Shown here: piece by piece, positions 10,695-30,270 of the stretch | Numbering within the stretch: the first letter of the stretch is position 1 | Layout of the letters: each line of letters starts with the position of its first letter | NCBI GenBank assembly: GCA_013822395.1 | Contig: PNKK01000013.1 | Location: forward strand, 4,723-68,722 | Source of the DNA: Anaerolinea sp. | GTDB lineage: Bacteria > Chloroflexota > Limnocylindria > Limnocylindrales > CSP1-4 | Length of the DNA: 64,000 nucleotides | Reading direction: 5' to 3' | Notes under the pieces: model-generated | What the model was told of the DNA's origin: nothing | What the model saw: only the letters and a program-made list of their open reading frames with translations | The model's database searches: none | Position numbers and translations under genes: made by a program

Positions 10695-10809
10695 TGACTC
10701 AATCCACAGCTGGCGAACCCCAGATTCGACGTTGTCCACCTCCGCCCCAGGGGTTTTCCCGCACCCAGTGCGGCTCCGGCCGAATCTCGTTGATGGCCTC
10801 CCAAGGCTG

Positions 10810-10871
10810 TCATTGACAATGATGTCATGATGCGAGATGGGGCTGACAATCGAACGCACGTTCGGTATCAT
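10810..10871 (+). promoter_or_regulatory. palindrome plus candidate leaderless promoter of the methyltransferase gene
   Basis: TCATTGaCAATGA palindrome (10810-10822). CTGACA (10843-10848), 17-nt spacer, TATCAT (10866-10871), then in-frame GTG at 10878 six nt downstream. Confidence 0.45.
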
Positions 10872-10877
10872 GCTGGC

Positions 10878-11966
10878 GTGAGCGACCTGCCAGCCATCAG
10901 CCTCTTCTCGGGCGTCGGGGGCCTCGACCTGGGCGTAGCCAGGGCTGGTTTCGACGTTCGGGTGGCTGTCGAGCTCGACCGCGATTCGGCTGCGAGCCTC
11001 CGTGCGAACCACTTCCCCGATCGCCAGGATGCCGTCTTCGAGCGATCGATCGTGGGCCTTGATGTGTCCGAGATCCTGGAGCGAGCAGGCCTGATGGCGG
11101 GCGAAGCAGCACTTGTGGTCGGCGGTCCCCCCTGCACCCCGTTCAGCAAATCGGGCAACTGGCTCGAGTACAAGCGGACGGGCAACGACCCCGACGCCTC
11201 GCTGCTGGACGAGTTCGCAAGGGTCGTCGAGGATGCCCGACCTGCGGCCGTCCTCATGGAGAATGTCTGGGGCCTTGCGTACAGGAACCACAACACAGTC
11301 CCGCTCTCCAGGCTCATGGACCGCCTGGAGGCAGTCGGCTACCGGGTCAGGTGGGAGGTGCTCAACGCGGCCGACTACGGGATCCCGCAACTCCGGAAGA
11401 GGCTGATCCTCTACGGGATGCTCGGCGAGGATCCTCCCGAACTGCCGAGGGCGACGCACTCTGGGTGGACTGAGACGAAGCGTGTCGTTGACCAAAACCT
11501 GCTCCCATACGTCACCAGCCGACAGGCGATCGGCGACCTCGAGCATCGCGACGACCTCGCGGAGACGGATGAGGAGGTCAACGGCCGGTATGGGCACCTG
11601 TTGCCGGAGATTCCGGCTGGGGACAACTACCTGTATTTCACCGAGAAGCGAGGGCACCCAGAGCCCTTGTTCAGGTGGCGAGGCCGCTACTGGACCTTCC
11701 TCCTGAAGCTGGACCCCGAGCGGCCCTCGACCACGATCCAAAGCCAGCCCGGTCCTTACATCGGTCCGTTCCATTGGAACGACCGGAGGCTCCGACTGCT
11801 GGAGGTCAAGCGACTGCAGACCTTCCCGGATGACTACGTAGTCGTCGCCCGCAACAGGCGGTCGTGGCAGAACCAGCTTGGCAACGCGGTCCCGCCGAGA
11901 CTGGCCGAGATCGTCGCGCGCCCGTTGGCAGACGCTCTTCGCTCGCGCCTGTTGGTGCCCACCTAA
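10878..11966 (+). CDS. DNA (cytosine-5)-methyltransferase
   Basis: Motif I LFSGVGGLDLG, motif IV GGPPCTPFS, motif VI ENV, QLRKRL, motif X GNAVPP. An alternative upstream start at 10827 (ORF track) is possible. Confidence 0.9.
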   Translation: MSDLPAISLFSGVGGLDLGVARAGFDVRVAVELDRDSAASLRANHFPDRQDAVFERSIVGLDVSEILERAGLMAGEAALVVGGPPCTPFSKSGNWLEYKRTGNDPDASLLDEFARVVEDARPAAVLMENVWGLAYRNHNTVPLSRLMDRLEAVGYRVRWEVLNAADYGIPQLRKRLILYGMLGEDPPELPRATHSGWTETKRVVDQNLLPYVTSRQAIGDLEHRDDLAETDEEVNGRYGHLLPEIPAGDNYLYFTEKRGHPEPLFRWRGRYWTFLLKLDPERPSTTIQSQPGPYIGPFHWNDRRLRLLEVKRLQTFPDDYVVVARNRRSWQNQLGNAVPPRLAEIVARPLADALRSRLLVPT

Positions 11967-11967
11967 G

Positions 11968-12666
11968 TCAAGCCTCCTCCTCGGCCACGACCCGCTCGGA
12001 CTCGGCTGCGTCTGGGGTCTTCTTGATCGGAAGAGATCGCCAGTACGCGTAGAAGTCGTCGATCGTGTCGAACGCGCCGCGCTCGGCCCGCAAGTCCGCG
12101 AGGGAGTCCATCGCGCCGATGTAGTTCCGCGTGGTGCTCGAGCGCTTCATGGACGCGACGCGCCACGTCTCGACGACGAGGATCTCGACGTTCTGGACGC
12201 CGCCGTCCACCCAGTCGTACAGGACGATCAGATCGATGTGCCACGCCATGTCGCCATAGGCAACGCCGACGCCCGGGATCGGTTCGGTGGGCCGTCTGAA
12301 GTAGGAGTCGAAGGGGCCGAGCGTGATCCGGGACTGCGTCCTGGTCGGCGCCCCGCCTCTCCTCATTTTGCGGCGCGCCACCTTCACGTCCAGGGCCACG
12401 CGGCGGTTGTCGACAGCGCGCCCCGTGAGAAGGACGTCCGGGTATCCCCGACCCGACAGATCGTCGAGGATGTCGAGACCGCGAACGGCATACGCCTTGC
12501 GCTTGAAGTGCTCCGTCACGGAGACCTCAACCACCTTCGCGACGACGGCGGGCTCCTTGGGCAGCGGGATCACACGTCCGTCATCGAGGATGATCCCGCG
12601 GACGTTCCAGTGATAGTCGTGGACGGCCGCCCTCAGCCATGCCTTGACGCCTTCGAGCGTGGTCAT
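11968..12666 (-). CDS. putative type II restriction endonuclease (PD-(D/E)XK)
   Basis: Convergent with and abutting the methyltransferase. GYPDVLL...ALDVKV fits PD...(D/E)xK. The ORF extends to 12780, but that part overlaps vsr, so the ATG at 12666 (MTTLEG...) or 12696 is preferred. Family not recognised. Confidence 0.55.
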   Translation of the reverse strand: MTTLEGVKAWLRAAVHDYHWNVRGIILDDGRVIPLPKEPAVVAKVVEVSVTEHFKRKAYAVRGLDILDDLSGRGYPDVLLTGRAVDNRRVALDVKVARRKMRRGGAPTRTQSRITLGPFDSYFRRPTEPIPGVGVAYGDMAWHIDLIVLYDWVDGGVQNVEILVVETWRVASMKRSSTTRNYIGAMDSLADLRAERGAFDTIDDFYAYWRSLPIKKTPDAAESERVVAEEEA

Positions 12667-12737
12667 GTCAGATGTCGCGCGTCCTCTCGCCACCATGCCG
12701 TGGAGAATAGCAGCGGGCCCAGTCGTACCATCCGGTC

Positions 12738-13220
12738 GTGCGCCTTCCCTACCCGAACCCATCGTCAGAGTCGGCGTCACGGGTCATGCGCGGCAACCGA
12801 GGATCCGGCACTGGGCCGGAGGTCCGGTTACGCTCGGCGCTGCACCGGGACGGACTGCGCTTCCGAACGGGTCTGCCGGTGCTCGCAGGCGACGTGCGGG
12901 TCCGGCCCGACGCCACGTTCACCCGCGCACGGCTTGCCGTCTTCGTCGATGGCTGCTACTGGCATCGATGTCCGGAACACGGAACGCGGCCGTCGGCCAA
13001 TGCCGCGTACTGGGGGCCGAAGCTCGACCGCAACGTAGACCGTGACCTCCGCGTCGACGCCGCGCTCGCCGGGGAGGGGTGGGCTGCGGTGAGGCTGTGG
13101 GAGCACGAGATCCAGGCAGACCTCGCCGAATGCGTCGGAAGGGTTCGGGCCGCCCTCAGGGTGAGGCCTGACCGATCGAGCCTCCTGAGGACGCCGCGTA
13201 CCCGTGACCGACCGCCATGA
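12738..13220 (+). CDS. vsr: very short patch repair endonuclease
   Basis: 160 aa. SxxMRGNRGSGTGPEVRLRSALHRDGLRFR, FVDGCYWHRCPEHG and NAAYWGPKLDRNVDRD are Vsr signatures. Confidence 0.9.
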   Translation: MRLPYPNPSSESASRVMRGNRGSGTGPEVRLRSALHRDGLRFRTGLPVLAGDVRVRPDATFTRARLAVFVDGCYWHRCPEHGTRPSANAAYWGPKLDRNVDRDLRVDAALAGEGWAAVRLWEHEIQADLAECVGRVRAALRVRPDRSSLLRTPRTRDRPP

Positions 13221-13226
13221 AAGGAA

Positions 13227-13254
13227 GAACCCCGGCTGGTCGGGGCCGGGGTTC
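13227..13254 (-). terminator. stem-loop between vsr and tRNA-fMet
   Basis: GAACCCCGGC (13227-13236) pairs with GCCGGGGTTC (13245-13254), 8-nt loop. On the minus strand it is followed by TTCCTTTC, so it fits best as the tRNA terminator. Confidence 0.45.
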
Positions 13255-13269
13255 TCAGGGAGAGGCGGT

Positions 13270-13344
13270 TGGTTGCGGGGAGGGGATTCGAACCCCTGAC
13301 CTTCGGGTTATGAGCCCGACGAGCTGCCGCTGCTCCACCCCGCG
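13270..13344 (-). tRNA. initiator tRNA-fMet (anticodon CAT), CCA encoded
   Basis: The reverse complement CGCGGGGTGGAGCAGCGGCAGCTCGTCGGGCTCATAACCCGAAGGTCAGGGGTTCGAATCCCCTCCCCGCAACCA folds as a 75-nt cloverleaf. It has the C1-A72 mismatch and three GC pairs in the anticodon stem, both initiator hallmarks. Confidence 0.95.
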
Positions 13345-13448
13345 ACCTCGCATTGTACTCGGGCGGCGCCGATCGGGCAACGACTTCTCGATGCCATGTC
13401 GATGCCAAGTGAGATCTGTCAGGGCTAGCGACTTCCCGACATCCGCAG

Positions 13449-15948: not shown

Positions 15949-16220
15949 GCAGGCGGTCGGTCGGCGACGGTCGCATCGCCGGCGTCGCGGCGGAGCTCGA
16001 GCAGTCGTGGTCACCCGGAATCGACGGGACTTCGAGCGGCAGGCTATACGCGTCCTCGACTATTGAGCCGGCCCGCGCCCGCACGCCGACTCCGCTCGTG
16101 GCCGTCGATGACGCCGACGGTCATCTGGAAATTCCCCCCCGCGCGGGAATCCGGCCATACGGATCCGGAGACCGACGTCGGCCGCATCGCACGGCATCGC
16201 GCCGCACAACCCCCAACCCG

Positions 16221-16973
16221 TCACGCTCCGGTTCGCAGCCGGACCCCAATCCGAGCGGCCGCGGCCTGCACCGCCACCGCCACGGCCGCCTCCGTCCCCG
16301 GCGTCGGGAAGCGATACGTCGGCCCGTGGGCATGGACCGCCGCCACGACCTCCCCGTCCGCCCCGGCGATCGGAGCCGCCACGGACGCGATCCCCTCGGC
16401 GAACTCCTCGCGCACCCAGGCGTGGCCGTCGCGTCGCACGTCTCGCAGCCGCTCCAGGAGCGTACCCGCGTCCGTGATGGTCCACGACGTGAACCGCTCG
16501 AGCGGCTCGGCCAGGAACCGCGCCACCGCCGGCGACGGGAGGTGAGCCAGGAACACCTGCCCGGAGGACACCGCGTGCATGGGAATGCGCGAGCCGGTCC
16601 AGTCGCGGACCTGCACCGGGTTCGGGGAATCGACCTGATCGACGTAGTGGACGGTCCGCCCGTCCGGCACCGACAGCCCCGCGGCCTCGCCGAGCTCGCC
16701 GGCCAGGGCGACGAGCGTTGGATGGGCGATCGCGACGAGCCCGCGAGTGTCCCGGAGCCCGGCGGCAAGCGACACGAGACGCGGCCCCAGGCGGTAGCGC
16801 GTCTCCCCGGGAACCTGCTCCACGGCGCCCTCGCGCTCGAGCGACGCGAGCAACCGGGCGGCCGTGGACTTCGGAAGGCCGACCCGACCGGCGACGTCGG
16901 TGACCCCGACCGGACCGTCGGCGAGCGCGCCGAGGACGGTGAACGCGCGCTCGATGCTCTGGACTCTGGACAT
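16221..16973 (-). CDS. IclR-family transcriptional regulator
   Basis: 250 aa. N-terminal wHTH (VQSIERAFTVLGALADGPVGVTDVAGRVGLPKSTAARLLASL) and C-terminal IclR effector domain. Confidence 0.85.
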   Translation of the reverse strand: MSRVQSIERAFTVLGALADGPVGVTDVAGRVGLPKSTAARLLASLEREGAVEQVPGETRYRLGPRLVSLAAGLRDTRGLVAIAHPTLVALAGELGEAAGLSVPDGRTVHYVDQVDSPNPVQVRDWTGSRIPMHAVSSGQVFLAHLPSPAVARFLAEPLERFTSWTITDAGTLLERLRDVRRDGHAWVREEFAEGIASVAAPIAGADGEVVAAVHAHGPTYRFPTPGTEAAVAVAVQAAAARIGVRLRTGA

Positions 16974-17006
16974 CCGGCTCCCCGTCGGCTACGCTGTCGG
17001 TCGGTC

Positions 17007-17041
17007 GTTCCATCATACGGCATTGTTCCACGATATGGAAC
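17007..17041. promoter_or_regulatory. candidate IclR-type operator in divergent intergenic region
   Basis: GTTCCAcgataTGGAAC perfect palindrome (17025-17041) plus an upstream GTTCCA half-site (17007-12). The TGGAA/TTCCA half-sites resemble classical IclR boxes. Confidence 0.5.
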
Positions 17042-17075
17042 CACCCGGAGACCGCACAGGAGCCAGGATCACCCG

Positions 17076-17777
17076 ATGGCACAGGATGGCTACCAAGACA
17101 TCGACCTCAGCGGACTCGCCGACGCCGAGCTGGTCGAACAGATGCACAACGACCTGTACGACGGGATGGCCGCCGAGATCGTCCAGGGCACGAACATCCT
17201 CCTCGGCCGCGGCTGGGGTCCCGAGAAGGTCCTGAATGAGGCCCTCGTCGAGGGCATGCGCATCGTCGGCATGGATTTCCGCGACGGGATTCTATTCGTG
17301 CCTGAGGTGCTCCTGGCGGCCAATGCGATGAAAGCCGGGATGGCCATTCTCCGTCCGCTCCTCGCCGAGACCGGCGCGCAGCCGATCGGCAAGGTCGTGA
17401 TCGGGACGGTCAAGGGCGACATCCACGACATCGGCAAGAACCTCGTCGCGATGATGCTCGAGGGCGCCGGCTTCGAGGTCCACGACCTCGGGATCAACAC
17501 CGATGCCGACAAGTTCATCGCCGCGCTCGAGCTGCACCAGCCGGACATCCTCGGGATGTCCGCCCTCCTCACCACCACGATGCCGTACATGAAGGTCGTC
17601 ATCGAGGAGCTCAAGAAGCGGGGAATCCGCGATGACTACATCGTCCTCGTTGGTGGCGCGCCCCTGAACGAGGAGTTCGGCCAGGCCGTCGGCGCCGACG
17701 CCTACTGTCGGGATGCCGCAGTCGCGTCGGAGACCGCTCGCAGGCTCGTCGAGCAACGCCGTGCGCAGGTCGCCTGA
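17076..17777 (+). CDS. corrinoid (cobalamin-binding) methyl-carrier protein
   Basis: 233 aa from the ATG at 17076. B12-binding cap plus Rossmann domain with GDIHDIGKN (DxHxxG) and MSALLTTTM, as in MtgC/MttC-like proteins. The upstream part of the 700-aa ORF is non-coding. Confidence 0.9.
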   Translation: MAQDGYQDIDLSGLADAELVEQMHNDLYDGMAAEIVQGTNILLGRGWGPEKVLNEALVEGMRIVGMDFRDGILFVPEVLLAANAMKAGMAILRPLLAETGAQPIGKVVIGTVKGDIHDIGKNLVAMMLEGAGFEVHDLGINTDADKFIAALELHQPDILGMSALLTTTMPYMKVVIEELKKRGIRDDYIVLVGGAPLNEEFGQAVGADAYCRDAAVASETARRLVEQRRAQVA

Positions 17778-17841
17778 CGGCACGTCCATCCGGCGCGGGC
17801 CGGCGTTGTCGGCTGCGGGCACTCACGCACGCACGACCGAG

Positions 17842-18759
17842 GTGCGCTCACTCGCGTCCTCGCCGGCACCTTCGTCCGCACTCGGCTTGACGCGCCCTCG
17901 GGAGCGCCCGCTCGTCATCGGCTGCGGCGCGCTCGCCAAAGAGCTGGCGGCGCTGACGCGTCGGGCCGGCTTTCCCGAGGTGGACCTGACGTGCCTGCCG
18001 GCCACTCTTCACAACCGTCCGGAGCGGATCCCGGAGGCGGTTCGTGCCCGGATCAAGCGCGCCCGCGCGGCCGGCCGCCAGCGGCTCTTCGTCGCTTATG
18101 CGGACTGTGGCACGGGTGGGATGCTGGACCGCGTCCTCGAGGAGGAGGGCGTCGCCCGCCTGGAGGGCGCCCACTGCTACGAGGTCTACGCCGGCCGCGC
18201 CGCCTTCATGGCCCTCGCCGAGGAAGAGCCGGGAACGTTCTACCTCACCGACTTCCTCGCCCGGAACTTCGAGAGACTTGTGATCCGCGGTCTCGGACTG
18301 GACCGCCACCCGGAGCTGCTGCCGCTCTATTTCGGGAGCTACACGCGGCTGCTCTACCTCGCTCAGACGGACGATGCCGCGCTCACGGCTGCCGCCCGCA
18401 GCGGCGCCGAACGCCTCGGCCTGCGCTTCGAGCGCCGGTATACGGGCTACGGCGAGCTCGTCCCGGCGATGACGGCCCTCACCTCGTCGGAGGCGGGGGC
18501 GTTTGCACCAGGTGCAAGCAACTCGGCATCGACGGCCGATCCCGGCGCCCGATCGGTCATTTCCTTGCCGCGCATGCACGAAATCGATGACATCGAGGTC
18601 GATGGGGTGCCCATGTTGCAGGTGGCGCAAAGGAATCGCCCCGGCGGGGTCGCGGCACGAAGTTGCTTGCATCCCGTGCAACGCGTCGACGAATCGTTGC
18701 ACCCGGTGCAGGGAATCGGCTGGACGCCGCCAGCGATCGCGATCGGGGGCCCCCGCTGA
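17842..18759 (+). CDS. DUF1638 domain protein with about 90-aa C-terminal extension
   Basis: PLVIGCGALAKEL...LHNRPERIP...ADCGTGGMLD...CYEVY...TFYLTDFL matches DUF1638, a family that accompanies corrinoid methyltransferase clusters. Start assigned to the in-frame GTG at 17842. The tail (18490-18757) contains the TTGCA palindromes. Confidence 0.7.
   Translation: MRSLASSPAPSSALGLTRPRERPLVIGCGALAKELAALTRRAGFPEVDLTCLPATLHNRPERIPEAVRARIKRARAAGRQRLFVAYADCGTGGMLDRVLEEEGVARLEGAHCYEVYAGRAAFMALAEEEPGTFYLTDFLARNFERLVIRGLGLDRHPELLPLYFGSYTRLLYLAQTDDAALTAAARSGAERLGLRFERRYTGYGELVPAMTALTSSEAGAFAPGASNSASTADPGARSVISLPRMHEIDDIEVDGVPMLQVAQRNRPGGVAARSCLHPVQRVDESLHPVQGIGWTPPAIAIGGPR
18503..18711. repeat. four TTGCA-N5-TGCAA palindromic 15-mers
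   Basis: TTGCAccaggTGCAA 18503-18517 (perfect 7+1+7), TTGCAggtggCGCAA 18616-18630, TTGCAtcccgTGCAA 18667-18681, TTGCAcccggTGCAG 18697-18711. Confidence 0.7.
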
Positions 18760-19088
18760 TGGCCGCCACGCTGACCGTGATCTGGTGGCGGGACATTCCC
18801 GCCCAGGTCGTGGCGAAGGACCGGCGCGAGGCCCACAAGGTCGTGCTGCATCCGCGCTTCCAGGTGGCGATCGACAAGGCCGCGATGAAGGGGGGTCGGA
18901 AGGAGTTCGGCGACTACATCGAGGAGTGGCGCCGCGAGGCCCGCCCGTGCGGCGACGACCTGCTGGCCGAGGCGGCGGCCGAGGCGGCGCGCCTCGAGGC
19001 GCAGTACACGAGGGAGGTCCTGGCGCGACTCGTCGCGGCCGGCGGCCTCGATCCCGCTCGAAGCGTCCCGAAGGATGGACCCGCATGA
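18759..19088 (+). CDS. small accessory protein of methyltransferase clusters (virulence-factor-domain-like)
   Basis: 109 aa (MAATLTVIWWRDIPAQVVAKD...). ATGA overlaps at both ends. Resembles the small conserved protein found beside MtrH-like genes. Function unknown. Confidence 0.6.
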   Translation: MAATLTVIWWRDIPAQVVAKDRREAHKVVLHPRFQVAIDKAAMKGGRKEFGDYIEEWRREARPCGDDLLAEAAAEAARLEAQYTREVLARLVAAGGLDPARSVPKDGPA

Positions 19089-20128
19089 CCCATACCGTCG
19101 TCTCGTCGGCCACGAAGGAGATCGTCCTCGGGTTCGACCGCCCGTTCGTGATCATCGGCGAGCGGATCAACCCGACCGGGCGAAAGCTCCTCGCCGAGGA
19201 GATGCGCGCGGGCGATTTCAGCCGCGTCGAGCGCGACGCGATCGCCCAGGTCGAGGCAGGGGCCCACATGCTCGATGTCAACGCGGGCATCCCCCTCGCG
19301 GACGAGCCCGGAATCCTGGCCCGGACGGTCCAGCTCGTCCAGTCGCTCGTGGACGTGCCCCTGTCGATCGACTCCTCGATCGTGGAAGCCCTCGAGGCCG
19401 GCCTCGCCGTCTACCGGGGCAAGGCGCTCGTCAACAGCGTGACCGGCGAGGAGGAACGCATGGAGCGCGTCCTGCCGTTGATCCGGAAGTACGGCGCCGC
19501 GGTCGTGGCGATCTCCAACGACGACACCGGGATCAGCGAGGACCCGGACGTCCGGTTCGCGGTCGCCAAGCGGATCGTCGAGCGGGCCGCGGACCACGGC
19601 ATCCCACGCAAGGACATCGTCGTGGATCCCCTCGTCATGCCGATCGGGGCGATGCGAACGGCCGGTCAGCAGGTCTTCCGGCTCGTCCGCCGCCTCCGCG
19701 AGGAGCTCGGCGTGAATTCAACCTGTGGCGCCTCCAACGTGAGCTTCGGCCTGCCGAACCGGGAGGGGATCAACGCGGCCTTTCTGCCCATGGCGATCGC
19801 GTCCGGTCTGACCTCGGCGATCACGAACCCGCTCTCGGCGGACGTCCGGGCCGCGATCATGGCCGCCGACGTCCTGATGGGCAACGACCAGGACGCCGCT
19901 CGCTGGATCCGGGCGAACCGCGCACCCACCCCGGAGGCCGGCATGGGCAGCGGGCCCGATGGGGCCGCCGCGGCGGGCGAGCGCGGGCGCCGGGTCAACC
20001 GGCGGGCGCTCGCGGCAGCGGGCAACGCCGCCGGCGGAGGCAGCTCCGCGGGCGGAGGAGACGCCGTGGTCGGAGACAACCCCGTGGTCGGAGGGGGCAT
20101 CGTGACCGGAGGCGGCGGCGCGTCGTGA
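19085..20128 (+). CDS. methyltetrahydrofolate:corrinoid methyltransferase (pterin-binding, MtrH/MtgA-like)
   Basis: 347 aa. IIGERINPTGRK, LDVNAG, ALVNSVTGEE and CGASNVSFGLPNR are pterin-binding TIM-barrel signatures. Gly-rich tail. Confidence 0.85.
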   Translation: MTHTVVSSATKEIVLGFDRPFVIIGERINPTGRKLLAEEMRAGDFSRVERDAIAQVEAGAHMLDVNAGIPLADEPGILARTVQLVQSLVDVPLSIDSSIVEALEAGLAVYRGKALVNSVTGEEERMERVLPLIRKYGAAVVAISNDDTGISEDPDVRFAVAKRIVERAADHGIPRKDIVVDPLVMPIGAMRTAGQQVFRLVRRLREELGVNSTCGASNVSFGLPNREGINAAFLPMAIASGLTSAITNPLSADVRAAIMAADVLMGNDQDAARWIRANRAPTPEAGMGSGPDGAAAAGERGRRVNRRALAAAGNAAGGGSSAGGGDAVVGDNPVVGGGIVTGGGGAS

Positions 20129-22245
20129 CCGCCGGCGCAGACCCGCTCGTCATCTTCACCCCCTCTGGGCGGCGGGGCCGGTTCGCCGCCGGGACGACGG
20201 TCCTCGATGCCGCCCGCGCCCTCGGCGTCGACCTCGACTCCGTGTGCGGCGGGCGCGGGCTGTGCGGCCGCTGTCAGGTTCGGCCCGGTGAGGGCGAGCT
20301 CCCGAAGCACGGCATCACCTCGTCCGGTGGCCACCTCTCCCCGGCCGGCGCGGACGAGGCGGAGTTCGACCGGCGGCGCGGCCTCGCGGCGGATCGGCGG
20401 CTCGGCTGTCGCGCGGCGATCTACGGCGACGTGCTCGTCGATGTGCCGCCCGAGAGCCAGGTCCACCGGCAGGTCATCAGGAAAGGTGTCCCGGTGCGGG
20501 ACTTCGTCATCGATCCCGTCGTCCGCCTCTTTGAGGTCGAGGTCGAGCGGCCAACGCTCGAGACGCCCGGCGGCGACCTCGCTCGCTTGCTCGCCGCCCT
20601 CAACCGTGAGTGGAGCCTCGATGGGCTGGTGGCGGACCTTGATGTCATCCGCGCGCTCCAGCCGGCGCTGGAGGCGGGCGACCACCGCGTCACCGTCGCG
20701 GTGCACGACGGACGGGACATCACCGCGATCTGGCCGGGCCTCCACGACCGGGCGCTCGGCATCGCGATCGACGTCGGCTCCACCACGATCGCCGGTCACC
20801 TCGCGGACCTTGCCGACGGCGCGGTCCTCGCCTCGGACGGCGTGATGAACCCGCAGATCCGGTTCGGCGAGGACCTCATGAGCCGCGTCTCGTTCGCGAT
20901 GCTCCACGAGGGCGGCGCCGCCGAGATGACCCGCGCGGTTCGCGACGCGCTGGGGACCCTGATCACCGGGCTCGCCGCCGGCGCCGGGGTGGACGCCGGC
21001 GACATCCTCGAGGTCACGCTCGTCGGCAACCCGATCATGCATCACCTCGTGCTGGGCATCGATCCCGTGCCGCTCGGCTCGGCGCCGTTCGCGCTGGCCA
21101 CGGACGGGGCGGTCCGGACCACGGCCCGCGAGCTGGGCCTCCCCCTTCGCCCGGGCGCGCGCGTCTACCTGCTGCCGTGCATCGCCGGCCACGTGGGCGC
21201 GGACGCGGCGGGTGCGATCCTCGCCGAGACTCCGTACCTGTCCGACGAGCTGACGCTCCTCGTGGACGTCGGTACGAATGCTGAGATCGTCCTCGGCAAT
21301 CGCGAGCGGCTCCTCGCGGCGAGCTCGCCCACGGGCCCCGCCTTCGAGGGTGCCCAGATCAGCTGTGGCCAGCGGGCGGCGCCCGGCGCCATCGAGCGGG
21401 TCCGAATCGACCGCGAGACGCTCGAACCGCAGTTCCGGGTCATCGGGTCCGGCCGCTGGTCGGACGAGACCGGCTTCGCGGCCTCCACCCGACGGACGGG
21501 CATCACCGGCGTCTGCGGGTCGGGGATCGTGGAGGTGATCGCCGAGCTGTTCCTGGCCGGCGTCATCACGGCGGACGGGACGATCGACGGGTCGCTGGCC
21601 GCCCGGAGCCCGCGGATCGTCAGGGACGGACGGACGTGGTCGTACGTGCTCCACGAGGGTGCGGCGCCGGCCGGCGAGGGGCTGCCCGGCAGCCCGCGCC
21701 TGGCGATCACCCAGAACGACGTCCGGGCGATCCAGCTCGCGAAGGCCGCGCTGTATGCGGGCGCGCGGCTGCTCATGGACCACCTCGGCGTCGAGACCGT
21801 GGACCGGGTCAGGCTTGCCGGTGCGTTCGGCAGCCAGATCGACCCGCTCCACGCGATGGTCCTGGGGCTCGTGCCGGACGCCCCGCTGGACCGCGTTGGC
21901 CCGGCGGGCAATGCCGCGGGCACCGGCGCCCTCATCGCCCTGCTGTCCGGCGAGGCCCGCCGAGAGATCGAGGCGGTCGTTCGTCGGGTCGAGAAGATCG
22001 AGACCGCGATCGAGCCGCGCTTCCAGGAGCACTTCGTGAACGCCATGGCCATCCCCCACGGGACCGCGCCAACGCCGAACCTGGCCGCGACGGTGCTGCT
22101 CCCCACCCGCCCTGCCGCGCCGGCCGTGGATGGCGCGAGCTCCGGCCGGCCGGGTGGCCCGGCCCAGCTCGGCAGCTCAGCCACCATCCACGGGCGCAGA
22201 ATCAACCGGCGACGGACGGCCGCCGCCGCGACGGAGGAACGCTGA
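20125..22245 (+). CDS. corrinoid reductive activation protein (2Fe-2S ferredoxin + ASKHA ATPase, RACo-type)
   Basis: GTG at 20125 (GTGA overlap). N-terminal CGGRGLCGRCQV plant-type 2Fe-2S motif. Large DUF4445/ASKHA-like body (IAIDVGSTTIAGH, DVGTNAEIV, GICGSG-like GVCGSGIV). Confidence 0.8.
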   Translation: MTAGADPLVIFTPSGRRGRFAAGTTVLDAARALGVDLDSVCGGRGLCGRCQVRPGEGELPKHGITSSGGHLSPAGADEAEFDRRRGLAADRRLGCRAAIYGDVLVDVPPESQVHRQVIRKGVPVRDFVIDPVVRLFEVEVERPTLETPGGDLARLLAALNREWSLDGLVADLDVIRALQPALEAGDHRVTVAVHDGRDITAIWPGLHDRALGIAIDVGSTTIAGHLADLADGAVLASDGVMNPQIRFGEDLMSRVSFAMLHEGGAAEMTRAVRDALGTLITGLAAGAGVDAGDILEVTLVGNPIMHHLVLGIDPVPLGSAPFALATDGAVRTTARELGLPLRPGARVYLLPCIAGHVGADAAGAILAETPYLSDELTLLVDVGTNAEIVLGNRERLLAASSPTGPAFEGAQISCGQRAAPGAIERVRIDRETLEPQFRVIGSGRWSDETGFAASTRRTGITGVCGSGIVEVIAELFLAGVITADGTIDGSLAARSPRIVRDGRTWSYVLHEGAAPAGEGLPGSPRLAITQNDVRAIQLAKAALYAGARLLMDHLGVETVDRVRLAGAFGSQIDPLHAMVLGLVPDAPLDRVGPAGNAAGTGALIALLSGEARREIEAVVRRVEKIETAIEPRFQEHFVNAMAIPHGTAPTPNLAATVLLPTRPAAPAVDGASSGRPGGPAQLGSSATIHGRRINRRRTAAAATEER

Positions 22246-23783
22246 TGCATGAAGGTCCTCGCCACCGCACCGGCGGCCGCGCTGGGCGCATGGCGGCCCG
22301 CCTGGCCGCCCACGTCGAGGCCGCACCGTTCCTGACCCGGACGCTGAAGCCGTTCGAGGTCCTGGACGAGGAGGGCCTGTCGCTCATCGAGGCCAACGCC
22401 GACACGATCCTCGAGGAGGTCGGCATCGAGTTCCGCGGCGACCCCGATGCGCTCCGACTCCTCCGCGAGGCCGGTGCGGACGTCGCGGGCGAGCTCGTCC
22501 GGTTTCCCCGCGGGATGTGCCGCCGGATCGTCCAGGCGTCGGCCCCTCGGATCTTCACCCAGCACGCCAGGAACCCCGAGCGGACCGTGAAGATCGGTGA
22601 CCCATACACCGTCCTCGCCCCGAACTACGGCTCGCCGTTCGTCCGTGACCTCGACAACGGCCGGCGCTACGGGACGATCGAGGACTTCCGGAATTTCGTG
22701 AAGCTCACCTACCTGAGCCCGCACCTCCACCACTCCGGAGGCACCGTCTGCGAGCCCGTGGACGTGCCGGTCAACAAGCGCCATCTCGACATGGTCTATT
22801 CGCACATCCGGTACTCGGACAAGCCGTTCATGGGCTCGGTCACCCACCCGTCGCGGGCCGCCGACACGGTCGAGCTGGCGAAGATCGCGTTCGGCGCGGA
22901 CTACGTCCGCGACCACACGGTGATCCTCAGCCTGATCAACGCGAACTCGCCGCTCGTCTGGGACTCGACGATGCTCGGCGCGGCCCGCGCCTACGCGACC
23001 AACAACCAGGCGACGCTCATCACCCCGTTCATCCTTGCGGGGGCGATGTCACCGGTGACGGTGGCCGGAACGGCGGCGCAGACGCTCGCCGAGGCGCTCG
23101 CTGGGATGACCTTCGTCCAGCTCACCCGGCCGGGAGCGCCGGTGGTCCTGGGGAGCTTTGCCAGCTCGATCTCGATGCAGTCGGGCGCTCCGACGTTCGG
23201 GACCCCGGAACCGGCCCTTGTCCTGTACACAATGGCCGCCCTCGCCCGGCGCCTTGGTGTCCCGTTCCGGTCCGGCGGCAACCTGTGCGCGTCGAAGGTC
23301 GCCGACGCGCAGGCGGCCTACGAGTCCGCCGCCACGTTCCAGCCGACGATCCTCGCCGGGGTCAACTTCGTTCTCCATGCGGCCGGCTGGCTGGAGGGCG
23401 GCCTGGCGATCGGCTACGAGAAATTCATCATGGACGCGGACCAGTGCGGGATGGCCGCCGTCTTCGTGAGGGGCGTGGACCTGTCGCCCAACGGCCAGGC
23501 CCTCGACGCCATCCGGGAGAACGGGCCCGGCGTCCACTTCCTCGGCAACAGCCATACGCTGGCGAACTTCGAGACCGCCTTCTACCGCTCCGAGATCGCG
23601 GACAACAACTCCTACGAGCAGTGGCTGGAGGACGGTGGCAAGGACGCCGCCGTGCGCGCGAACGCGATCTGGAAGCGGATGCTGGCCGAGTACGAAGCGC
23701 CGCCGATCGACGACGCCATCGACGAGGCGCTCCTCGAGTTCATCGTCCGCCGCAAGGCGTCCTTCCCCGACTCGGAGGTCTGA
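22245..23783 (+). CDS. MttB-superfamily (trimethylamine methyltransferase family) substrate:corrinoid methyltransferase, non-pyrrolysine
   Basis: 512 aa from the ATG at 22245 (ATGA overlap). The length and sequence look like MttB/MtgB TIM-barrel proteins. The frame is uninterrupted, with no in-frame TAG. Confidence 0.8.
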   Translation: MHEGPRHRTGGRAGRMAARLAAHVEAAPFLTRTLKPFEVLDEEGLSLIEANADTILEEVGIEFRGDPDALRLLREAGADVAGELVRFPRGMCRRIVQASAPRIFTQHARNPERTVKIGDPYTVLAPNYGSPFVRDLDNGRRYGTIEDFRNFVKLTYLSPHLHHSGGTVCEPVDVPVNKRHLDMVYSHIRYSDKPFMGSVTHPSRAADTVELAKIAFGADYVRDHTVILSLINANSPLVWDSTMLGAARAYATNNQATLITPFILAGAMSPVTVAGTAAQTLAEALAGMTFVQLTRPGAPVVLGSFASSISMQSGAPTFGTPEPALVLYTMAALARRLGVPFRSGGNLCASKVADAQAAYESAATFQPTILAGVNFVLHAAGWLEGGLAIGYEKFIMDADQCGMAAVFVRGVDLSPNGQALDAIRENGPGVHFLGNSHTLANFETAFYRSEIADNNSYEQWLEDGGKDAAVRANAIWKRMLAEYEAPPIDDAIDEALLEFIVRRKASFPDSEV

Positions 23784-23785
23784 GC

Positions 23786-24676
23786 GTGGCCTTCCCCAGG
23801 CACCGATCGCGCCTCGACGATGCGGGCCGCGCGGCCCTCATCCGCGTCCTCGAGGCGCCGACCTTCGAGCTCATCCCGCTGAAGAACGCCGACGATCAGG
23901 CGAGCCACCTCCCGGCCGGCGCCACGGTCTCGGTCACTGCGTCGCCGGCGAAGGGCCTCATGGCGACAGCCGAGCTGTCGCTCCGTCTCCACGAGCGCGG
24001 GCTGCGCGTCGTGCCCCACCTGTCGGCCCGCCTGACCCGCGACCGCCGGGAGCTGCTCGCGTACCTCGCGCCGCTCCGGGATGCTGGGATCGATCGCCTG
24101 TTCGTGGTCGGCGGCGACCCGGAGGAGCCGGGTGACTATCCCGACGCGCTGAGCGTACTCCGGGAGATGGCCGACCTCGGCGTGCTCCCAGCCGAGATCG
24201 GGATCGGCGGCTACCCCGACGGCCACGCGTTCATCCCCGACGAGTGGCTCGACGCGGCCCTTGCGGCCAAGGCGCCGTTCGCCTCGTACCTCACCACCCA
24301 GCTGTGCTTCGACCCGAAGGCGATCGCGACCTGGATCGAGGGTCGTCGTGCGGCCGGGATCACGCTGCCGATCAAGCTCGGAATCCCGGCGGTCGCCCAG
24401 ATCCCCAAGCTCATCGAGATCTCCGCGCGGATCGGGGTCCGCGACGCCTCCAAGTTCATCATGAAGAACACGGCGTTCGTCGGGCAGCTGATCGCGTCCG
24501 GCGGGATGTATCGGCCGAACGGCTTCCTCGAGGCCGTCGCGCCGGTCATCGCCGACCCGACGGCCGGGATCGTTGACCTCCACGTCTACACGTTCAACCA
24601 GGTGGTCTCGACCGAAGCCTGGCGACGCGAGTACCTCGCCGCGCTCGGGGCATCGACCGCGGGAGCCGGGGCGTGA
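23786..24676 (+). CDS. metF: methylenetetrahydrofolate reductase
   Basis: 296 aa from the GTG at 23786. FELIPLKN..., VPHLSAR, FVVGGDP, GGYPDGH and TQLCFD follow the MTHFR pattern. Confidence 0.8.
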   Translation: MAFPRHRSRLDDAGRAALIRVLEAPTFELIPLKNADDQASHLPAGATVSVTASPAKGLMATAELSLRLHERGLRVVPHLSARLTRDRRELLAYLAPLRDAGIDRLFVVGGDPEEPGDYPDALSVLREMADLGVLPAEIGIGGYPDGHAFIPDEWLDAALAAKAPFASYLTTQLCFDPKAIATWIEGRRAAGITLPIKLGIPAVAQIPKLIEISARIGVRDASKFIMKNTAFVGQLIASGGMYRPNGFLEAVAPVIADPTAGIVDLHVYTFNQVVSTEAWRREYLAALGASTAGAGA

Positions 24677-25119
24677 CCCCGGACCAGCGCCGCCTGCGCG
24701 ACGCGCTGGCCGCGGTGCCCGAGCGGGTGGCGGCGACCATCGAGGCATCGTCCAGGCCGCCGGATGATGCTCCGGCGCCAGGGGAGTGGTCCGCAAGGCA
24801 GGTCGTCCTCCATCTCGCCGCCGTCGAGGAGGAGGTCTGGCAGGCGCGCCTCGACGCGCTCGCGAGCGAGGCGTTCCCGCACTGGCCGTGGGTGGAGCCG
24901 GGGCTCTGGGCAGGCCCGGGCGGCGACACCTGGGATGGCGCATTGGCCGCCTTCGCAGCGTGCCGCGCGGCGACCGTCGCCCGGCTCGACGCCCTCGACG
25001 CCGACGGCTGGCGCCGGACCGGCCGCCACGCCACCTACGGGATCCTCGATGTCGCCGCGCTGCTCCGCATCCTCCTCGCCCACGACGAAGAGCACCTCGC
25101 GCAGATCGCCACGGGTTGA
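24673..25119 (+). CDS. DinB-family protein
   Basis: 148 aa. WSARQVVLHLAAVEEEVW and the C-terminal LLAHDEEHLAQI His motifs are typical of DinB_2. Confidence 0.8.
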   Translation: MTPDQRRLRDALAAVPERVAATIEASSRPPDDAPAPGEWSARQVVLHLAAVEEEVWQARLDALASEAFPHWPWVEPGLWAGPGGDTWDGALAAFAACRAATVARLDALDADGWRRTGRHATYGILDVAALLRILLAHDEEHLAQIATG

Positions 25120-25121
25120 TC

Positions 25122-25787
25122 TCACCGGCGGGTGGTGCGCCACCACCGCCATCCGGCGAACGCCACCGCGACGGTCGCCCCGCACGGGAGCAGCCAGCCC
25201 AGGCCGCCTGGATCGAACGGGCCACCGGCGACGGCCGCCTCGCCCTCGATGGGCCGGATCCGGACGACCGGCAGGCTCCGATGCCGCTCGAGGAGCTCCG
25301 CCTCGTCAGTTGTGCGCACGTCGCCGACGATCGTTCGCCCGATGAGCCCGAAGCTGGCGATGAGCGCGCGGTACGTCGCCAACCACTCGTCGGGGTCGGT
25401 CACCGGCTCGGCCGTGCCGCGGAACCGCCGGGTCGGCAGGACGACCTCCACCGACGGATCCGCGATGAGGTTGCGCAACCACGACGTGGAGGCGCCGTAG
25501 CCGGCGACGCAGTACACCGCGCCGTCCCCGATGACGTACCCGAGCGGTGCTTCGCGGATCCGGCCGGAGCGGTGTCCACGGGTTCGGAGCAGCATCAGGT
25601 GACCAGTGAGCGGATTGCCGACGAGCCAACCGAATCCGTGCCGGATCAGCGGCGCCATGAAACCACGGTTCAGGACGAGGAACCCGCGCTGGAGCGGCCG
25701 CAGGAGACGGGTCATCACCGGCCCATAGGGGAGCGCCGGCGCGGCTGCGGGCATGGGCGCAGGCTCCCGCTCGACCGTGGTGATCAC
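25122..25787 (-). CDS. deazaflavin-dependent nitroreductase-family (Ddn/DUF385-like) protein with C-terminal TM
   Basis: LLRTRGHRSGRIREAPLGYVIDGDAVYCVAGYGASTSWLRNL-like core, characteristic of the F420-dependent split-barrel family. Confidence 0.75.
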   Translation of the reverse strand: MITTVEREPAPMPAAAPALPYGPVMTRLLRPLQRGFLVLNRGFMAPLIRHGFGWLVGNPLTGHLMLLRTRGHRSGRIREAPLGYVIGDGAVYCVAGYGASTSWLRNLIADPSVEVVLPTRRFRGTAEPVTDPDEWLATYRALIASFGLIGRTIVGDVRTTDEAELLERHRSLPVVRIRPIEGEAAVAGGPFDPGGLGWLLPCGATVAVAFAGWRWWRTTRR

Positions 25788-26179
25788 CCCGGGAGCGTGA
25801 CGCGGCCGACGTCCGACGGCCAGGGTCGAACGGCCCCCTCGGCTACCGCCCGAAGATCCCGCGCCTGATCACTGGATGATCATCTCGCGGTCACCGCCGT
25901 CTCGACGTCAGGCCTCCACCTCCCGACAGGCATCGTTGTCCGGTGTCGTGTTCGCCCAGTGATCAAGGCGCCTCGGAAGGCGGGCTCGCGGCACAGTATT
26001 ACGACGGCGCTGCGACGGTGAGGCTCACGGAGCGCCAAGAATGGTCATGTCGTGATCGTCAATCATGTCAGGGCCGCTGGCGGGACGGAGTCACGGCGCG
26101 ACGCCCGCTCGGCCGTCGAACGGCGGCTCCGCTACCCTGCCCCGTGGCCCGCGACACCTGACCACCGCCGGAGGACCCG

Positions 26180-27886
26180 ATGCCGACGATCAGTGAGATT
26201 TCCACTCGTTACATCGACGAGGTCGCGGACCTCGATCCCGTCCGCGGCGAGCGCTGGGGCGTCGCCTCCGATCCCACCCGGCTGACGGACTACTCGCCGG
26301 CCGGGTACGCGGCGTTCCGTGCCCTCCTCCAGCGGACGCTGGACGCGCTCGCGGCTGCAGAGTCGCCCAGGGACGAGGCCGAGCGCCTGGGGATCGGCTT
26401 TCTCGCCGACTGGATCGGGGGCGAGGCCGGCGTGCTCGACGCTGGGGAGCGCGAGCGTGGGCTGAGCATCATCACAGGCCCCCCCGCGGTCACCCGCTCG
26501 GTCTTCGACCTCATGGATCACGCGACCCCCGAGGCCTGGGAGAAGATCGCCGCGCGCTTGCGAGCCGCGCCGGCCGCGATGGACGGCTACCGCGCGACCC
26601 TGGAGGCGGGGCTGGCCAAGGGTCGCCCGGCCGCACGCCGCCAGGCCATCGCCGTCGCGGAGCAGTGCGCGACCTGGGCCGGGAACGGCGACGATGGCGG
26701 CTGGTTCGGCGGGTTCGTCGCGGGTGCCGCAGCCGTGGGCGCCGACGACGCCCTTCGAGCCGAGCTCGCCGCCGCCGCCCGCGACGCCGGCAACGCCTAC
26801 GGCCGACTCGCGTCCTGGCTCCGCGACGAGTACGCGCCGCGGGCCACGGAGATCGACGCCTCGGGCGACGAGCGCTACCAGACGTGGGCTCGTTACCTCC
26901 TGGGCACGGACCTCGACCTCGACGAGGCGTACGCGTGGGGCTGGGAGGAGCTCGCCCGGCTCGAGGCCGAGAAAGCGAAGGAGTGCGCCAGGATCCTGCC
27001 CGGAGCCTCCTTCCTCGAGGTCCGGAAGCTGCTCATCACGGACCCGGCCCGCTCGGTCGAGGGCGTCGATGCCTACCGCGACTGGCTCCAGTCGGTGACG
27101 GACGAGGCGATCGAGGGCCTCGACGGCCGCGAGTTCGACATCCACCCCTCGATCCGCCGCTGCGACGTCCGGATCCCGCCGGAGGGGAGCGCCGCCGCCG
27201 CCTACTACACGCCACCGTCGGAGGACCTCGTCCGGCCCGGCCAGACCTGGTTCCCCACGGTCGGGCGGACCCGCTTCCCGAAGTGGGACGAGGTGAGCAC
27301 CGTCTACCACGAGGCCGTGCCGGGGCACCACCTTCAGGGCGCGACGATCCGCCTGGTGCCGTTGACCCGCGCCCAGAAGCTCGGCTTCGTCTCGGCGCAC
27401 GGGGAGGGCTGGGCGCTCTACGCCGAGCGGCTCATGGACGAGCTCGGCTGGTTCCGGACCCCGGACACGCGCCTGGGGTTCCTGTGCGCCCACGCGTTCC
27501 GGGCCGCGCGCGTCGTCGTCGACATCGGCCTCCACACCGGTCGGGCCATCCCCGCCGCCGGCGTTGCGCTCTTCCCAGACTGGTCCGGCCAGGCCGGCCG
27601 TCCGTGGACGTACGACGGGGCCATCGACTTCATGATCCGAGCCGGCGGGATGGAGCGTGACAAGGCCGAGAGCGAGGTCCTGCGCTACCTCTCCTGGCCG
27701 AGCCAGGCGACCGCCTACAAGCTCGGCGAGCGGACCTGGCTCGCCGGGCGAGAGGCGGCAAAGGCCGCCGCGGCCGCCGCGGCCGCCGACGGCCGGGTCT
27801 TCGATCTCAAGACGTGGCACGCGCGGGCGCTCGCGCTGGGGCCGCTGGGTTTGCGGCGGCTCGGCGCCGAGCTTGCCCGGATCTGA
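26180..27886 (+). CDS. DUF885-family protein
   Basis: 568 aa. GGAGGA SD upstream. YHEAVPGHHLQ (HExxH-like) and the overall pattern fit DUF885. Confidence 0.8.
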   Translation: MPTISEISTRYIDEVADLDPVRGERWGVASDPTRLTDYSPAGYAAFRALLQRTLDALAAAESPRDEAERLGIGFLADWIGGEAGVLDAGERERGLSIITGPPAVTRSVFDLMDHATPEAWEKIAARLRAAPAAMDGYRATLEAGLAKGRPAARRQAIAVAEQCATWAGNGDDGGWFGGFVAGAAAVGADDALRAELAAAARDAGNAYGRLASWLRDEYAPRATEIDASGDERYQTWARYLLGTDLDLDEAYAWGWEELARLEAEKAKECARILPGASFLEVRKLLITDPARSVEGVDAYRDWLQSVTDEAIEGLDGREFDIHPSIRRCDVRIPPEGSAAAAYYTPPSEDLVRPGQTWFPTVGRTRFPKWDEVSTVYHEAVPGHHLQGATIRLVPLTRAQKLGFVSAHGEGWALYAERLMDELGWFRTPDTRLGFLCAHAFRAARVVVDIGLHTGRAIPAAGVALFPDWSGQAGRPWTYDGAIDFMIRAGGMERDKAESEVLRYLSWPSQATAYKLGERTWLAGREAAKAAAAAAAADGRVFDLKTWHARALALGPLGLRRLGAELARI

Positions 27887-29376: not shown

Positions 29377-30254
<878 letters not shown>

Positions 30255-30270
30255 CCCCGGCGGCCGACCG

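Follow-up and report, generated by a model that had tools for sequence, protein, structure and literature searches.

We analyzed a 64-kb stretch of DNA from a bacterium of the phylum Chloroflexota (contig PNKK01000013.1), referred to here as the window, with emphasis on a locus at positions 16221 to 25119 that comprises one minus-strand gene and eight co-directional plus-strand genes (Table 1). The plus-strand genes (17076 to 25119) encode, in order, a corrinoid protein, a DUF1638 protein, a small PF13769 protein, a pterin-binding methyl-tetrahydrofolate (methyl-THF):corrinoid methyltransferase, a reductive activator of corrinoid proteins (RACo), a methyltransferase of the MttB superfamily, a protein resembling methylenetetrahydrofolate reductase (MTHFR), and a DinB_2-family protein; the minus-strand gene encodes an IclR-family regulator. 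We consider it probable that this operon is a cobalamin-dependent, three-component glycine betaine methyl-transfer system in an aerobic soil member of the Chloroflexota.

Gene content and organization of the locus

Because the window is approximately 71% G+C, raw lists of open reading frames (ORFs) are noisy; genes were called by third-position GC frame analysis combined with inspection of start codons, and domains were assigned by scanning the window proteins with Pfam and NCBIfam profiles. A preliminary description of this DNA had proposed a divergent IclR gene and a tight co-directional gene series forming a three-component corrinoid system with its own activator, MTHFR, and regulator, and both the domain families and the gene junctions bear this out. 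Overlaps of 4 nt (ATGA or GTGA) occur at the PF13769/methyltransferase, methyltransferase/RACo, and MTHFR/DinB_2 junctions, and 1-nt TGATG overlaps occur at the DUF1638/PF13769 and RACo/MttB junctions. The MttB and MTHFR genes are separated by a 2-nt gap, and the corrinoid protein gene overlaps that of DUF1638 by about 17 nt, depending on the uncertain start of the latter. For that start, a database protein (P0121, 332 amino acids) is 100% identical over a 205-amino-acid query, and its length fits a start at 17761. The preliminary description had counted seven translationally coupled genes. The coupling stands, but the exact form of some of the overlaps does not, and the eighth gene, that of the DinB_2 protein, had been overlooked. 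The pathway had also been called complete, which is too strong, as a transporter, dimethylglycine or sarcosine enzymes, and a homocysteine methyltransferase were not found in the window. A scan of positions 16000 to 26200 found no promoter-like sites and found terminator-like sites at chance level, and an Rfam scan returned only one tRNA and no cobalamin riboswitch.

Table 1. Features of the methyl-transfer locus, in window coordinates
Feature	Position	Strand	Basis
IclR-family transcriptional regulator, divergent to operon	16221-16973	-	HTH_IclR 55 bits, IclR_C 118 bits
Candidate IclR operator, two sites	17007-17041		Palindrome and its conservation
Corrinoid (cobalamin-binding) protein, MtgC-like	17076-17777	+	B12-binding_2 and B12-binding, DIHDIG
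DUF1638 protein	17761-18759	+	PF07796 92 bits; start codon uncertain (17761-17887)
Small PF13769 ("Virulence_fact") protein, 109 amino acids	18759-19088	+	PF13769 64 bits
Methyl-THF:corrinoid methyltransferase, MtgD/MtgA-like	19085-20128	+	Pterin_bind 101 bits; NF005719
RACo/RamA-like ATP-dependent reductive activator of corrinoid proteins	20125-22245	+	Fer2, RACo_linker, Raco_middle, RACo_C_ter
Non-pyrrolysine MttB-superfamily methyltransferase, probably MtgB-like	22245-23783	+	PF06253 750 bits
MTHFR-like protein	23786-24676	+	PF02219 just 30 bits
DinB_2-family protein	24673-25119	+	DinB_2 53 bits

Conservation of the operon among relatives

An ortholog survey with one genome per species gave 80 loci with MttB orthologs of 69 to 93% identity, onto which the window proteins were mapped by tblastn. 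The closest MttB homologs (82 to 94% identical) belong to metagenome-assembled genomes named Candidatus Limnocylindrales, Chloroflexota, and "uncultured Chloroflexia." A PF13769 protein identical to that of the window comes from a metagenome-assembled genome labeled Anaerolinea sp. From the names of these close homologs, the host is a Limnocylindrales-like member of the Chloroflexota; an actinobacterial host, to which the neighboring genes of F420 and DinB type might have pointed, is rejected by the same homolog taxonomy. Beyond the Limnocylindrales, ortholog loci are present in the Actinomycetota (Gaiellales, Thermoleophilia, Acidimicrobiia, and Ilumatobacteraceae, 72 to 76% identity), in many Gamma-, Beta-, and Alphaproteobacteria (69 to 73%), and in one genome of the Acidobacteriota. 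Nearly all loci of the Limnocylindrales and Actinomycetota keep the order of a divergent IclR gene followed by the genes for corrinoid protein, DUF1638, PF13769, methyltransferase, RACo, MttB, and MTHFR. In the Proteobacteria, the same parts are rearranged, and a canonical MetF and a DUF5981 (MetV-like) protein are encoded between PF13769 and the methyltransferase. Among the 43 core loci, defined as those with both the corrinoid protein and the methyltransferase, RACo is present in 42, PF13769 in 39, DUF1638 in 36, and an MTHFR resembling that of the window in 22. The arrangement is not due to chance, as this order is repeated in dozens of loci that span three phyla. This analysis establishes the gene content, the domain architectures, and the conserved synteny of the operon, its orthology to a locus of Sinorhizobium meliloti, and the association of its orthologous loci with genes of the glycine betaine pathway.

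The MttB-superfamily methyltransferase

The window MttB is a full-length member of its superfamily, with residues 8 to 508 aligning to positions 1 to 500 of PF06253 at 750 bits against a cutoff of 25. That it belongs to the non-pyrrolysine type, as had been proposed, is confirmed. Its ORF contains no internal stop codon and no in-frame UAG, and Leu347 aligns to the pyrrolysine position (X in PDB 7xcl) of Methanosarcina barkeri MttB. The score against TIGR02369, the equivalog model of pyrrolysine MttB, is 250 bits, far below the curated cutoff of 525. Among solved structures, the protein matches 4yyc at 722 bits, the glycine betaine methyltransferase MtgB of Desulfitobacterium hafniense (2qne/9yce) at 400 bits, and 7xcl at only 106 bits. 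The label of PDB 4YYC is "putative trimethylamine methyltransferase." Homologs from Sinorhizobium meliloti and Azoarcus are 66% and 71% identical to the window protein, respectively.

In D. hafniense MtgB, glycine betaine is bound by Y97, R312, H348, and F356 (Picking et al., PMC13080624). The first three are matched in the window protein by Y128, R342, and H378, which are invariant in 83 orthologs, and the window protein has the motif HAAGWLEGG where MtgB has HTAGILQYF. The pocket pattern Y-R-L-H-W-G-G is found in 80 of 83 MttB orthologs, and paralogs in the same loci differ from it. The Tyr equivalent to MtgB Y97 was reported as not conserved in enzymes for other substrates, and R312 and H348 are kept across enzymes with different acidic substrates (PMC13080624); the latter two residues are therefore not diagnostic of the substrate. 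Taken alone, the residue evidence on the substrate is ambiguous.

Extra MttB copies with 26 to 60% identity and different pocket residues are present in some of the loci (L037, L067, L046, L061, L017, and L019), with patterns such as G-R-L-H-W-G-G, Y-R-F-H-F-G-L, and T-R-V-H-W-G-G. These paralogs probably act on other methylated substrates via the same corrinoid protein.

The corrinoid protein, its methyltransferase and activator, and the accessory proteins

The corrinoid protein carries the DIHDIG motif at residues 115 to 120, and its best NCBIfam match is the glycine betaine-specific MtgC, at 207 bits, which is under the cutoff of that model. The pterin-binding methyltransferase scores 368 bits against NF005719, above the curated methyl-THF:corrinoid methyltransferase cutoff of 259. 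The activator aligns over its full length to RACo of Carboxydothermus hydrogenoformans (PDB 3zyy, 297 bits) and has the four Pfam domains of the RACo type in the expected order (2Fe-2S ferredoxin, linker, middle, and ASKHA domains), with Cys41, Cys47, Cys50, and Cys95 in the N-terminal 2Fe-2S ferredoxin domain.

Two of the conserved proteins have no relatives among solved structures. DUF1638 has a poorly conserved tail but keeps H42, D73-C74-G75-T76, H96-C97, and T121-D122 across phyla, and these residues may form a metal or cofactor site. The PF13769 protein keeps W10, R11, P14, Q16, F34, Q35, and D39 and has no conserved Cys or His. AlphaFold2 models of both were confident (predicted local distance difference test scores of 82 for DUF1638 and 84 for PF13769). 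Foldseek searches of the PDB with these models gave no significant neighbors, the best E values being 0.009 and 0.17 with TM-scores of about 0.3, and sequence searches of the PDB with the same two proteins found no relatives either. DUF1638 and a RamA-like protein are genetically required for the split methionine synthase of Phaeobacter inhibens; no specific proposal for the action of DUF1638 was offered (Price et al., PMC5764234). DUF1638 is probably an accessory factor with a genetic link to the reactivation of corrinoids. The accession PF13769 was absent from the literature searched, and its PGAP/Pfam name "virulence factor" has 0 occurrences in the report of Mausz et al. (PNAS 2025, PMC12478193) on the aerobic glycine betaine system, although the family is kept in these loci.

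The start of the DinB_2 gene overlaps the stop codon of the MTHFR gene (GTGA) in the window and likewise in two other loci (L004 and L007). A DinB_2 gene is nearby in three more (L003, L010, and L029) and is absent from the other loci, including those of the Actinomycetota and Proteobacteria. DinB-fold proteins are often thiol-dependent transferases. A link of this protein to the handling of formaldehyde or methylene-THF is conceivable, and a role in the methyl-transfer system is uncertain.

The MTHFR-like protein

The nearest solved relative of the MTHFR-like protein is S6MTHFR of Sphingobium SYK-6 (PDB 7xg9, 125 bits), whereas canonical MTHFRs match at only 28 bits. S6MTHFR is the prototype of the type 4 MTHFRs; it oxidizes methyl-THF and cannot use NADH, and the hallmark residues of its type are Leu48, Pro49, Arg78, Pro268, and Phe269 (PMC11868366). 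Orthologs of the window protein follow MttB in 22 of the 43 core loci. It is not orthologous to the MetF of the proteobacterial clusters, to which it is 25% identical over 115 amino acids. The presence of two unrelated MTHFR types at the same position of the system speaks for a common role downstream of methyl-THF.

Regulation

The regulator has the HTH_IclR and IclR_C architecture of its family, and the 102-bp intergenic region that separates its gene from that of the corrinoid protein, the putative divergent promoter region, contains a perfect palindrome, GTTCCAcgataTGGAAC, at 17025 to 17041, with a related site, GTTCCATCATACGGCAT, ahead of it at 17007 to 17023. The palindrome GTTCCAN5TGGAAC occurs once in the window against 0.05 occurrences expected by chance. 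The two-site element recurs between the corresponding genes at 15 loci of the Limnocylindrales, the Gaiellales, and other Actinomycetota, and a divergent IclR homolog lies upstream of the corrinoid protein gene in most Limnocylindrales and several Actinomycetota loci. We regard the element as a strong candidate for the IclR operator.

Genomic context and the likely substrate

The preliminary description had held that the substrate could not be read from the sequence and might be novel. The context of the orthologous loci, far clearer than the residue evidence, points instead to glycine betaine as the likely substrate. Neighboring genes of 82 loci were clustered, and representatives of the clusters were scanned for family. 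Dimethylglycine/sarcosine-dehydrogenase-type proteins (DAO, FAO_M, GCV_T) were found in 17 loci, subunits of heterotetrameric sarcosine oxidase in 9 to 11, choline dehydrogenase in 9, betaine-aldehyde dehydrogenase-like proteins in 5, electron-transferring flavoprotein (ETF) subunits in 9, formate-THF ligase in 6, and GbdR-like regulators in 12 loci, all proteobacterial. When only orthologous loci of at least 15 kb were considered, a gene for a dimethylglycine-dehydrogenase-like protein, SoxABG, BetA, BetB, or a GbdR-like protein lay within 10 kb in 38 of 58, and 7 of the 10 long Limnocylindrales loci have betaine-related genes, or genes for ETF, which serves the same pathway, directly adjoining the operon. 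The ortholog in Azoarcus KH32C is located between folD and the genes for a choline ATP-binding cassette (ABC) binding protein, betA, and betB. Linkage to glycine betaine catabolism thus holds across the orthologous loci, while the window itself has no such linkage. With fair confidence, based on comparative context and not on the window alone, we take glycine betaine to be the probable substrate.

Proposed mechanism and competing explanations

We propose that the MttB enzyme would move one N-methyl group of glycine betaine to the Co(I) corrinoid of the MtgC-like carrier, giving dimethylglycine as the product, and that the pterin-binding methyltransferase would pass the methyl group from methyl-Co(III) to THF. 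The MTHFR-like enzyme would then oxidize methyl-THF to methylene-THF for one-carbon oxidation or assimilation. Corrinoid that becomes oxidized to the inactive Co(II) form, which is likely a frequent event in an aerobe, would be re-reduced by RACo using ATP and its 2Fe-2S cluster, and DUF1638, possibly together with the PF13769 protein, may help in this reactivation. The IclR protein would control the operon through the palindrome in the intergenic region. An aerobic methyl-oxidation route had already been suggested for this locus, and the same model has been published for the orthologous proteobacterial system (PMC12478193). The aa3 oxidase on which that suggestion drew is indeed encoded in the same genome, by an operon at 1654 to 6343 on the plus strand with COX2, COX1, and COX3 within 1654 to 5051, and the host is a respirer.

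A number of observations weigh against the glycine betaine assignment or against parts of the mechanism. In the window MttB, the fourth binding residue of MtgB, F356, aligns to Gly386. Trp382, four residues past His378, is invariant in the MttB clade, and it is a guess that this residue might stand in for F356. Identity to D. hafniense MtgB, about 40 to 45% as judged by eye from the alignment, does not exceed the 40% measured for an uncharacterized class of paralogs in the same loci. The substrate of the clade that includes the window protein, 4yyc, and the S. meliloti homolog is assigned from genomic context and from proteomics in a relative. The 64-kb window contains no dimethylglycine, sarcosine, or choline genes and no betaine transporter or ETF. 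L004, the relative closest in synteny, has a dimethylglycine-dehydrogenase-like gene at 7709 to 10171 of its locus, between a gene for an F420H2-reductase-like protein and one for a DUF885 protein, whereas the window has just a 393-bp gap (25787 to 26180) and no copy of the gene anywhere in its 64 kb; the difference suggests lineage-specific gain or loss. We infer co-transcription of the operon, for which the promoter and terminator scan was uninformative.

A further adverse point concerns the MTHFR. At the five hallmark positions of the type 4 enzymes, the window protein has Ser, Pro, Leu, Thr, and Phe, so that it shares only P49 and F269 with S6MTHFR and differs at three of the five. The pattern S-P-(M/L)-T-F is found in 23 of the 29 MTHFR orthologs, and this set of kept and replaced residues is consistent in 24 of them. 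Because the protein does not fit the type 4 pattern, we infer the oxidative direction from context. The route from methyl-THF to methylene-THF via a MetF protein, as envisaged in the preliminary description, is borne out in the presence of an MTHFR-like gene and less firmly in its direction; the protein, whose nearest solved relative is the methyl-THF-oxidizing S6MTHFR, probably oxidizes methyl-THF.

These features also allow a more speculative reading, which we put forward tentatively and consider doubtful as a whole. RACo, DUF1638 with its conserved His/Cys site, and the PF13769 protein might constitute a maintenance module for the corrinoid methyltransferases of aerobes. At the same time, the MTHFR of the Chloroflexota and Actinomycetota might represent a further, undescribed class that is related to S6MTHFR, has different residues in its active-site loop, and couples the oxidation of methyl-THF to an electron acceptor yet to be named. 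Less likely still, the invariant Y-R-H-W pocket of this MttB clade might accommodate a compound different from glycine betaine.

Among the competing explanations, the one that survives best keeps the mechanism and replaces the donor with another compound, such as proline betaine, carnitine, gamma-butyrobetaine, choline, phosphocholine, or another quaternary amine. We regard it as unlikely. The substrates of the MttB superfamily are diverse quaternary amines (PMC13080624, PMC8604678), and many genomes carry several MttB paralogs (PMC12478193). The replacement of F356 by Gly, the conservation of R312 and H348 across enzymes with different substrates, and the absence of glycine betaine pathway neighbors from the window are likewise consistent with another donor. 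However, the ortholog clade, with at least 65% identity and invariant pocket positions, adjoins betaine-related genes in the 38 of 58 long loci noted above, which come from several phyla, and the products of these neighboring genes either form glycine betaine or use up what its demethylation yields. The Tyr at the position of MtgB Y97, moreover, is invariant in the clade of the window protein.

A mainly anabolic role, with the operon as the core of a split methionine synthase and the MTHFR working reductively to supply methyl-THF, appears quite improbable. This explanation draws on P. inhibens and Ruegeria pomeroyi, where methionine synthesis depends on the orthologous corrinoid protein and methyltransferase together with the RamA-like protein and DUF1638 (PMC5764234, PMC12478193). 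It also accords with the MTHFR of the window, which is without the NADH-blocking residues of S6MTHFR (Leu48 is replaced by Ser and Pro268 by Thr) and which has, at the second of these positions, the Thr of canonical reductive MTHFRs. The homocysteine methyltransferase MtgE/Bmt that such a synthase would include is, however, absent from the window and from the Limnocylindrales and Actinomycetota loci and was found in only 3 proteobacterial loci. The operon also contains a methyl-donor enzyme, MttB, and related loci have catabolic neighbors. Methionine synthesis may nonetheless be a secondary function of the glycine betaine system, as in Ruegeria.

That the locus is a module for anaerobic methylotrophy or acetogenesis, or that its MttB is a true trimethylamine methyltransferase, is highly improbable: source databases label the homologs "trimethylamine--corrinoid protein Co-methyltransferase" and a metagenome survey placed such Limnocylindria genes under anaerobic methylotrophy (PMC11264602), but the gene lacks a UAG, has Leu at the pyrrolysine position, and scores far under the TIGR02369 cutoff, the window encodes an aa3 oxidase and has no Wood-Ljungdahl genes near the operon, and neighbors in the relatives include O2-dependent sarcosine oxidase and ETF-linked dehydrogenases.

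Other features of the window

Two architectures in the aa3 oxidase operon are worth recording: subunit II has an extra C-terminal cupredoxin domain, and the gene at 5276 to 6343 (plus strand) combines a CoxIV-like segment with a cupredoxin domain. Farther downstream, a lower-GC patch (about 65%) at 10000 to 13350 contains a C5 cytosine DNA methyltransferase gene (11052 to 11966, plus strand) and a convergent gene for an EcoRV-like restriction endonuclease (11968 to 12780, minus strand), adjoined by a tRNA gene (13273 to 13344, minus strand), and has the appearance of a small restriction-modification island next to the tRNA. A second lower-GC stretch, between genes for a SufS-like cysteine desulfurase (30181 to 31617) and a NifU/SufU-like protein (33172 to 33645), holds two plus-strand ORFs (31682 to 32895) that by eye encode an excisionase-type helix-turn-helix protein and a nucleotidyltransferase-like protein; the pair may represent a toxin-antitoxin or mobile insertion within the iron-sulfur assembly cluster. 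Plus-strand genes at 33857 to 38092 encode a rhodanese-ThiF fusion, a ThiS-like carrier, a pyridoxal phosphate-dependent CysM-like enzyme, and a JAB-domain protease, a cysteine biosynthesis-like cluster of the sulfur-carrier type that resembles mycobacterial CysO/CysM/Mec. The gene at 40306 to 42162 (plus strand) encodes a 618-amino-acid protein with an unusual domain combination, a fusion of GrpB to a PurK-like ATP-grasp carboxylase.

A run of signaling genes occupies the minus strand from 45631 to 54503. Two of them encode large hybrid histidine kinases that carry PAS, Cache, and HAMP domains, and the run also includes a receiver-HisKA_3 kinase and an EAL-domain response regulator. Between 55047 and 63944, also on the minus strand, an aldehyde dehydrogenase gene is grouped closely with genes for a short-chain dehydrogenase, a glutamine-synthetase-like protein, and an amino-acid permease, an assembly reminiscent of amine catabolism of the gamma-glutamylation type. 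The aldehyde dehydrogenase (55047 to 56528) matches the betaine-aldehyde family and several other families equally well, all under their cutoffs; because of these equal scores and its distance of 30 kb from the operon, it was not counted as a betaine-aldehyde dehydrogenase.

Implications

Glycine betaine is one of the major osmolytes and supplies both carbon and nitrogen. Not until 2025 was a cobalamin-dependent aerobic route for the removal of its first methyl group established, in marine Proteobacteria. The system described here, with MttB proteins 69 to 93% identical across phyla, occurs widely in abundant lineages of soil and freshwater that are mostly uncultured (Limnocylindrales, Gaiellales, and Acidimicrobiia), and many soil Proteobacteria carry it as well. 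If the proposed function is correct, a vitamin B12-dependent step in osmolyte turnover would extend to soils. The annotation of these proteins as "trimethylamine methyltransferase" and the survey reading of the genes as anaerobic methylotrophy are both likely wrong here. The analysis also provides three defined targets for future work, namely, the DUF1638 protein, the PF13769 protein, and the S6MTHFR-like MTHFR with divergent hallmark residues.

Comparison with known systems

The closest known system is that of aerobic R. pomeroyi, which needs MtgC and MtgD both to grow on glycine betaine, an ability lost in mtgC and mtgD mutants, and to synthesize methionine (PMC12478193). The PF06253 proteins MtgB1 and MtgB2, a RamA-like activator, DUF1638, and the MetF paralog MetF2 are induced on glycine betaine in the same organism, and in S. 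meliloti the genes are colocalized, the locus being described as MtgBCDE with two reactivation modules (PMC12478193). In that study, Chloroflexota are unmentioned, and Actinomycetota appear just with a 5% share of the marine mtgC reads. In the annotated S. meliloti locus, the families seen in the window are accompanied by bmt and a glycine betaine/proline ABC transporter, and the identities between the two loci are 66% for MttB, 71% for MtgC, 64% for the methyltransferase, 56% for RACo, 51% for DUF1638, and 52% for PF13769. MtgB (PF06253), MtgC (B12-binding), MtgD (PF00809), the RamA/RACo activator, and DUF1638 all co-occur in the window operon, and its host is aerobic, as in the published system. 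An MTHFR-like gene takes the position of MetF2, although its product is not orthologous to the proteobacterial MetF. The window differs in its Chloroflexota host and in having all parts in a single translationally coupled operon. Its MTHFR is a single-subunit, S6MTHFR-like protein where the proteobacterial loci have a pair of MetF and MetV-like (DUF5981) proteins, and its regulator is an IclR protein with its own candidate operator where those loci have a GbdR-like AraC protein. Unlike the MtgBCD system with its role in methionine synthesis, the window has no MtgE nearby, and a dual role is not apparent at this locus.

The anaerobic MtgB/MtgC/MtgA system of D. hafniense (2QNE, 9YCE) shares with the window the three-component logic, the fold family, the Leu at the pyrrolysine position, and three of the four binding residues. 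It is more distant, as the MttB match is just 400 bits, the window host is aerobic, and the window corrinoid protein falls under the NCBIfam MtgC cutoffs. M. barkeri MttB (7XCL) has in common with the window enzyme the PF06253 family and a corrinoid protein partner, but the window protein is without UAG or pyrrolysine, and the match is confined to the C-terminal half. S6MTHFR of Sphingobium lignivorans SYK-6 (7XG9) is, like the window enzyme, encoded beside a demethylase that produces methyl-THF (PMC11868366); this upstream demethylase is corrinoid dependent in the window and of the LigM type, which is THF dependent, in the case of S6MTHFR. The activator shares its domain order with C. hydrogenoformans RACo (3ZYY), and its partner would be the MtgC-type corrinoid protein of an aerobe, whereas that of 3ZYY is the corrinoid iron-sulfur protein of the acetyl-CoA pathway; its score against NF040756 (AcsV), 357 bits, is under the cutoff of 800.

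Because the S. meliloti locus holds the same families, with an MttB 66% identical to that of the window, the operon belongs to a kind already published, and the pathway as a whole had been described in 2025 (PMC12478193). We therefore view the window operon as a representative, in the Chloroflexota, of the system for aerobic, cobalamin-dependent demethylation of glycine betaine. Its variant features are modest: a compact operon, an MTHFR with divergent hallmark residues, an IclR regulator with a conserved palindrome, an optional coupled DinB_2 gene, and two conserved accessory proteins for whose folds no relatives are known.

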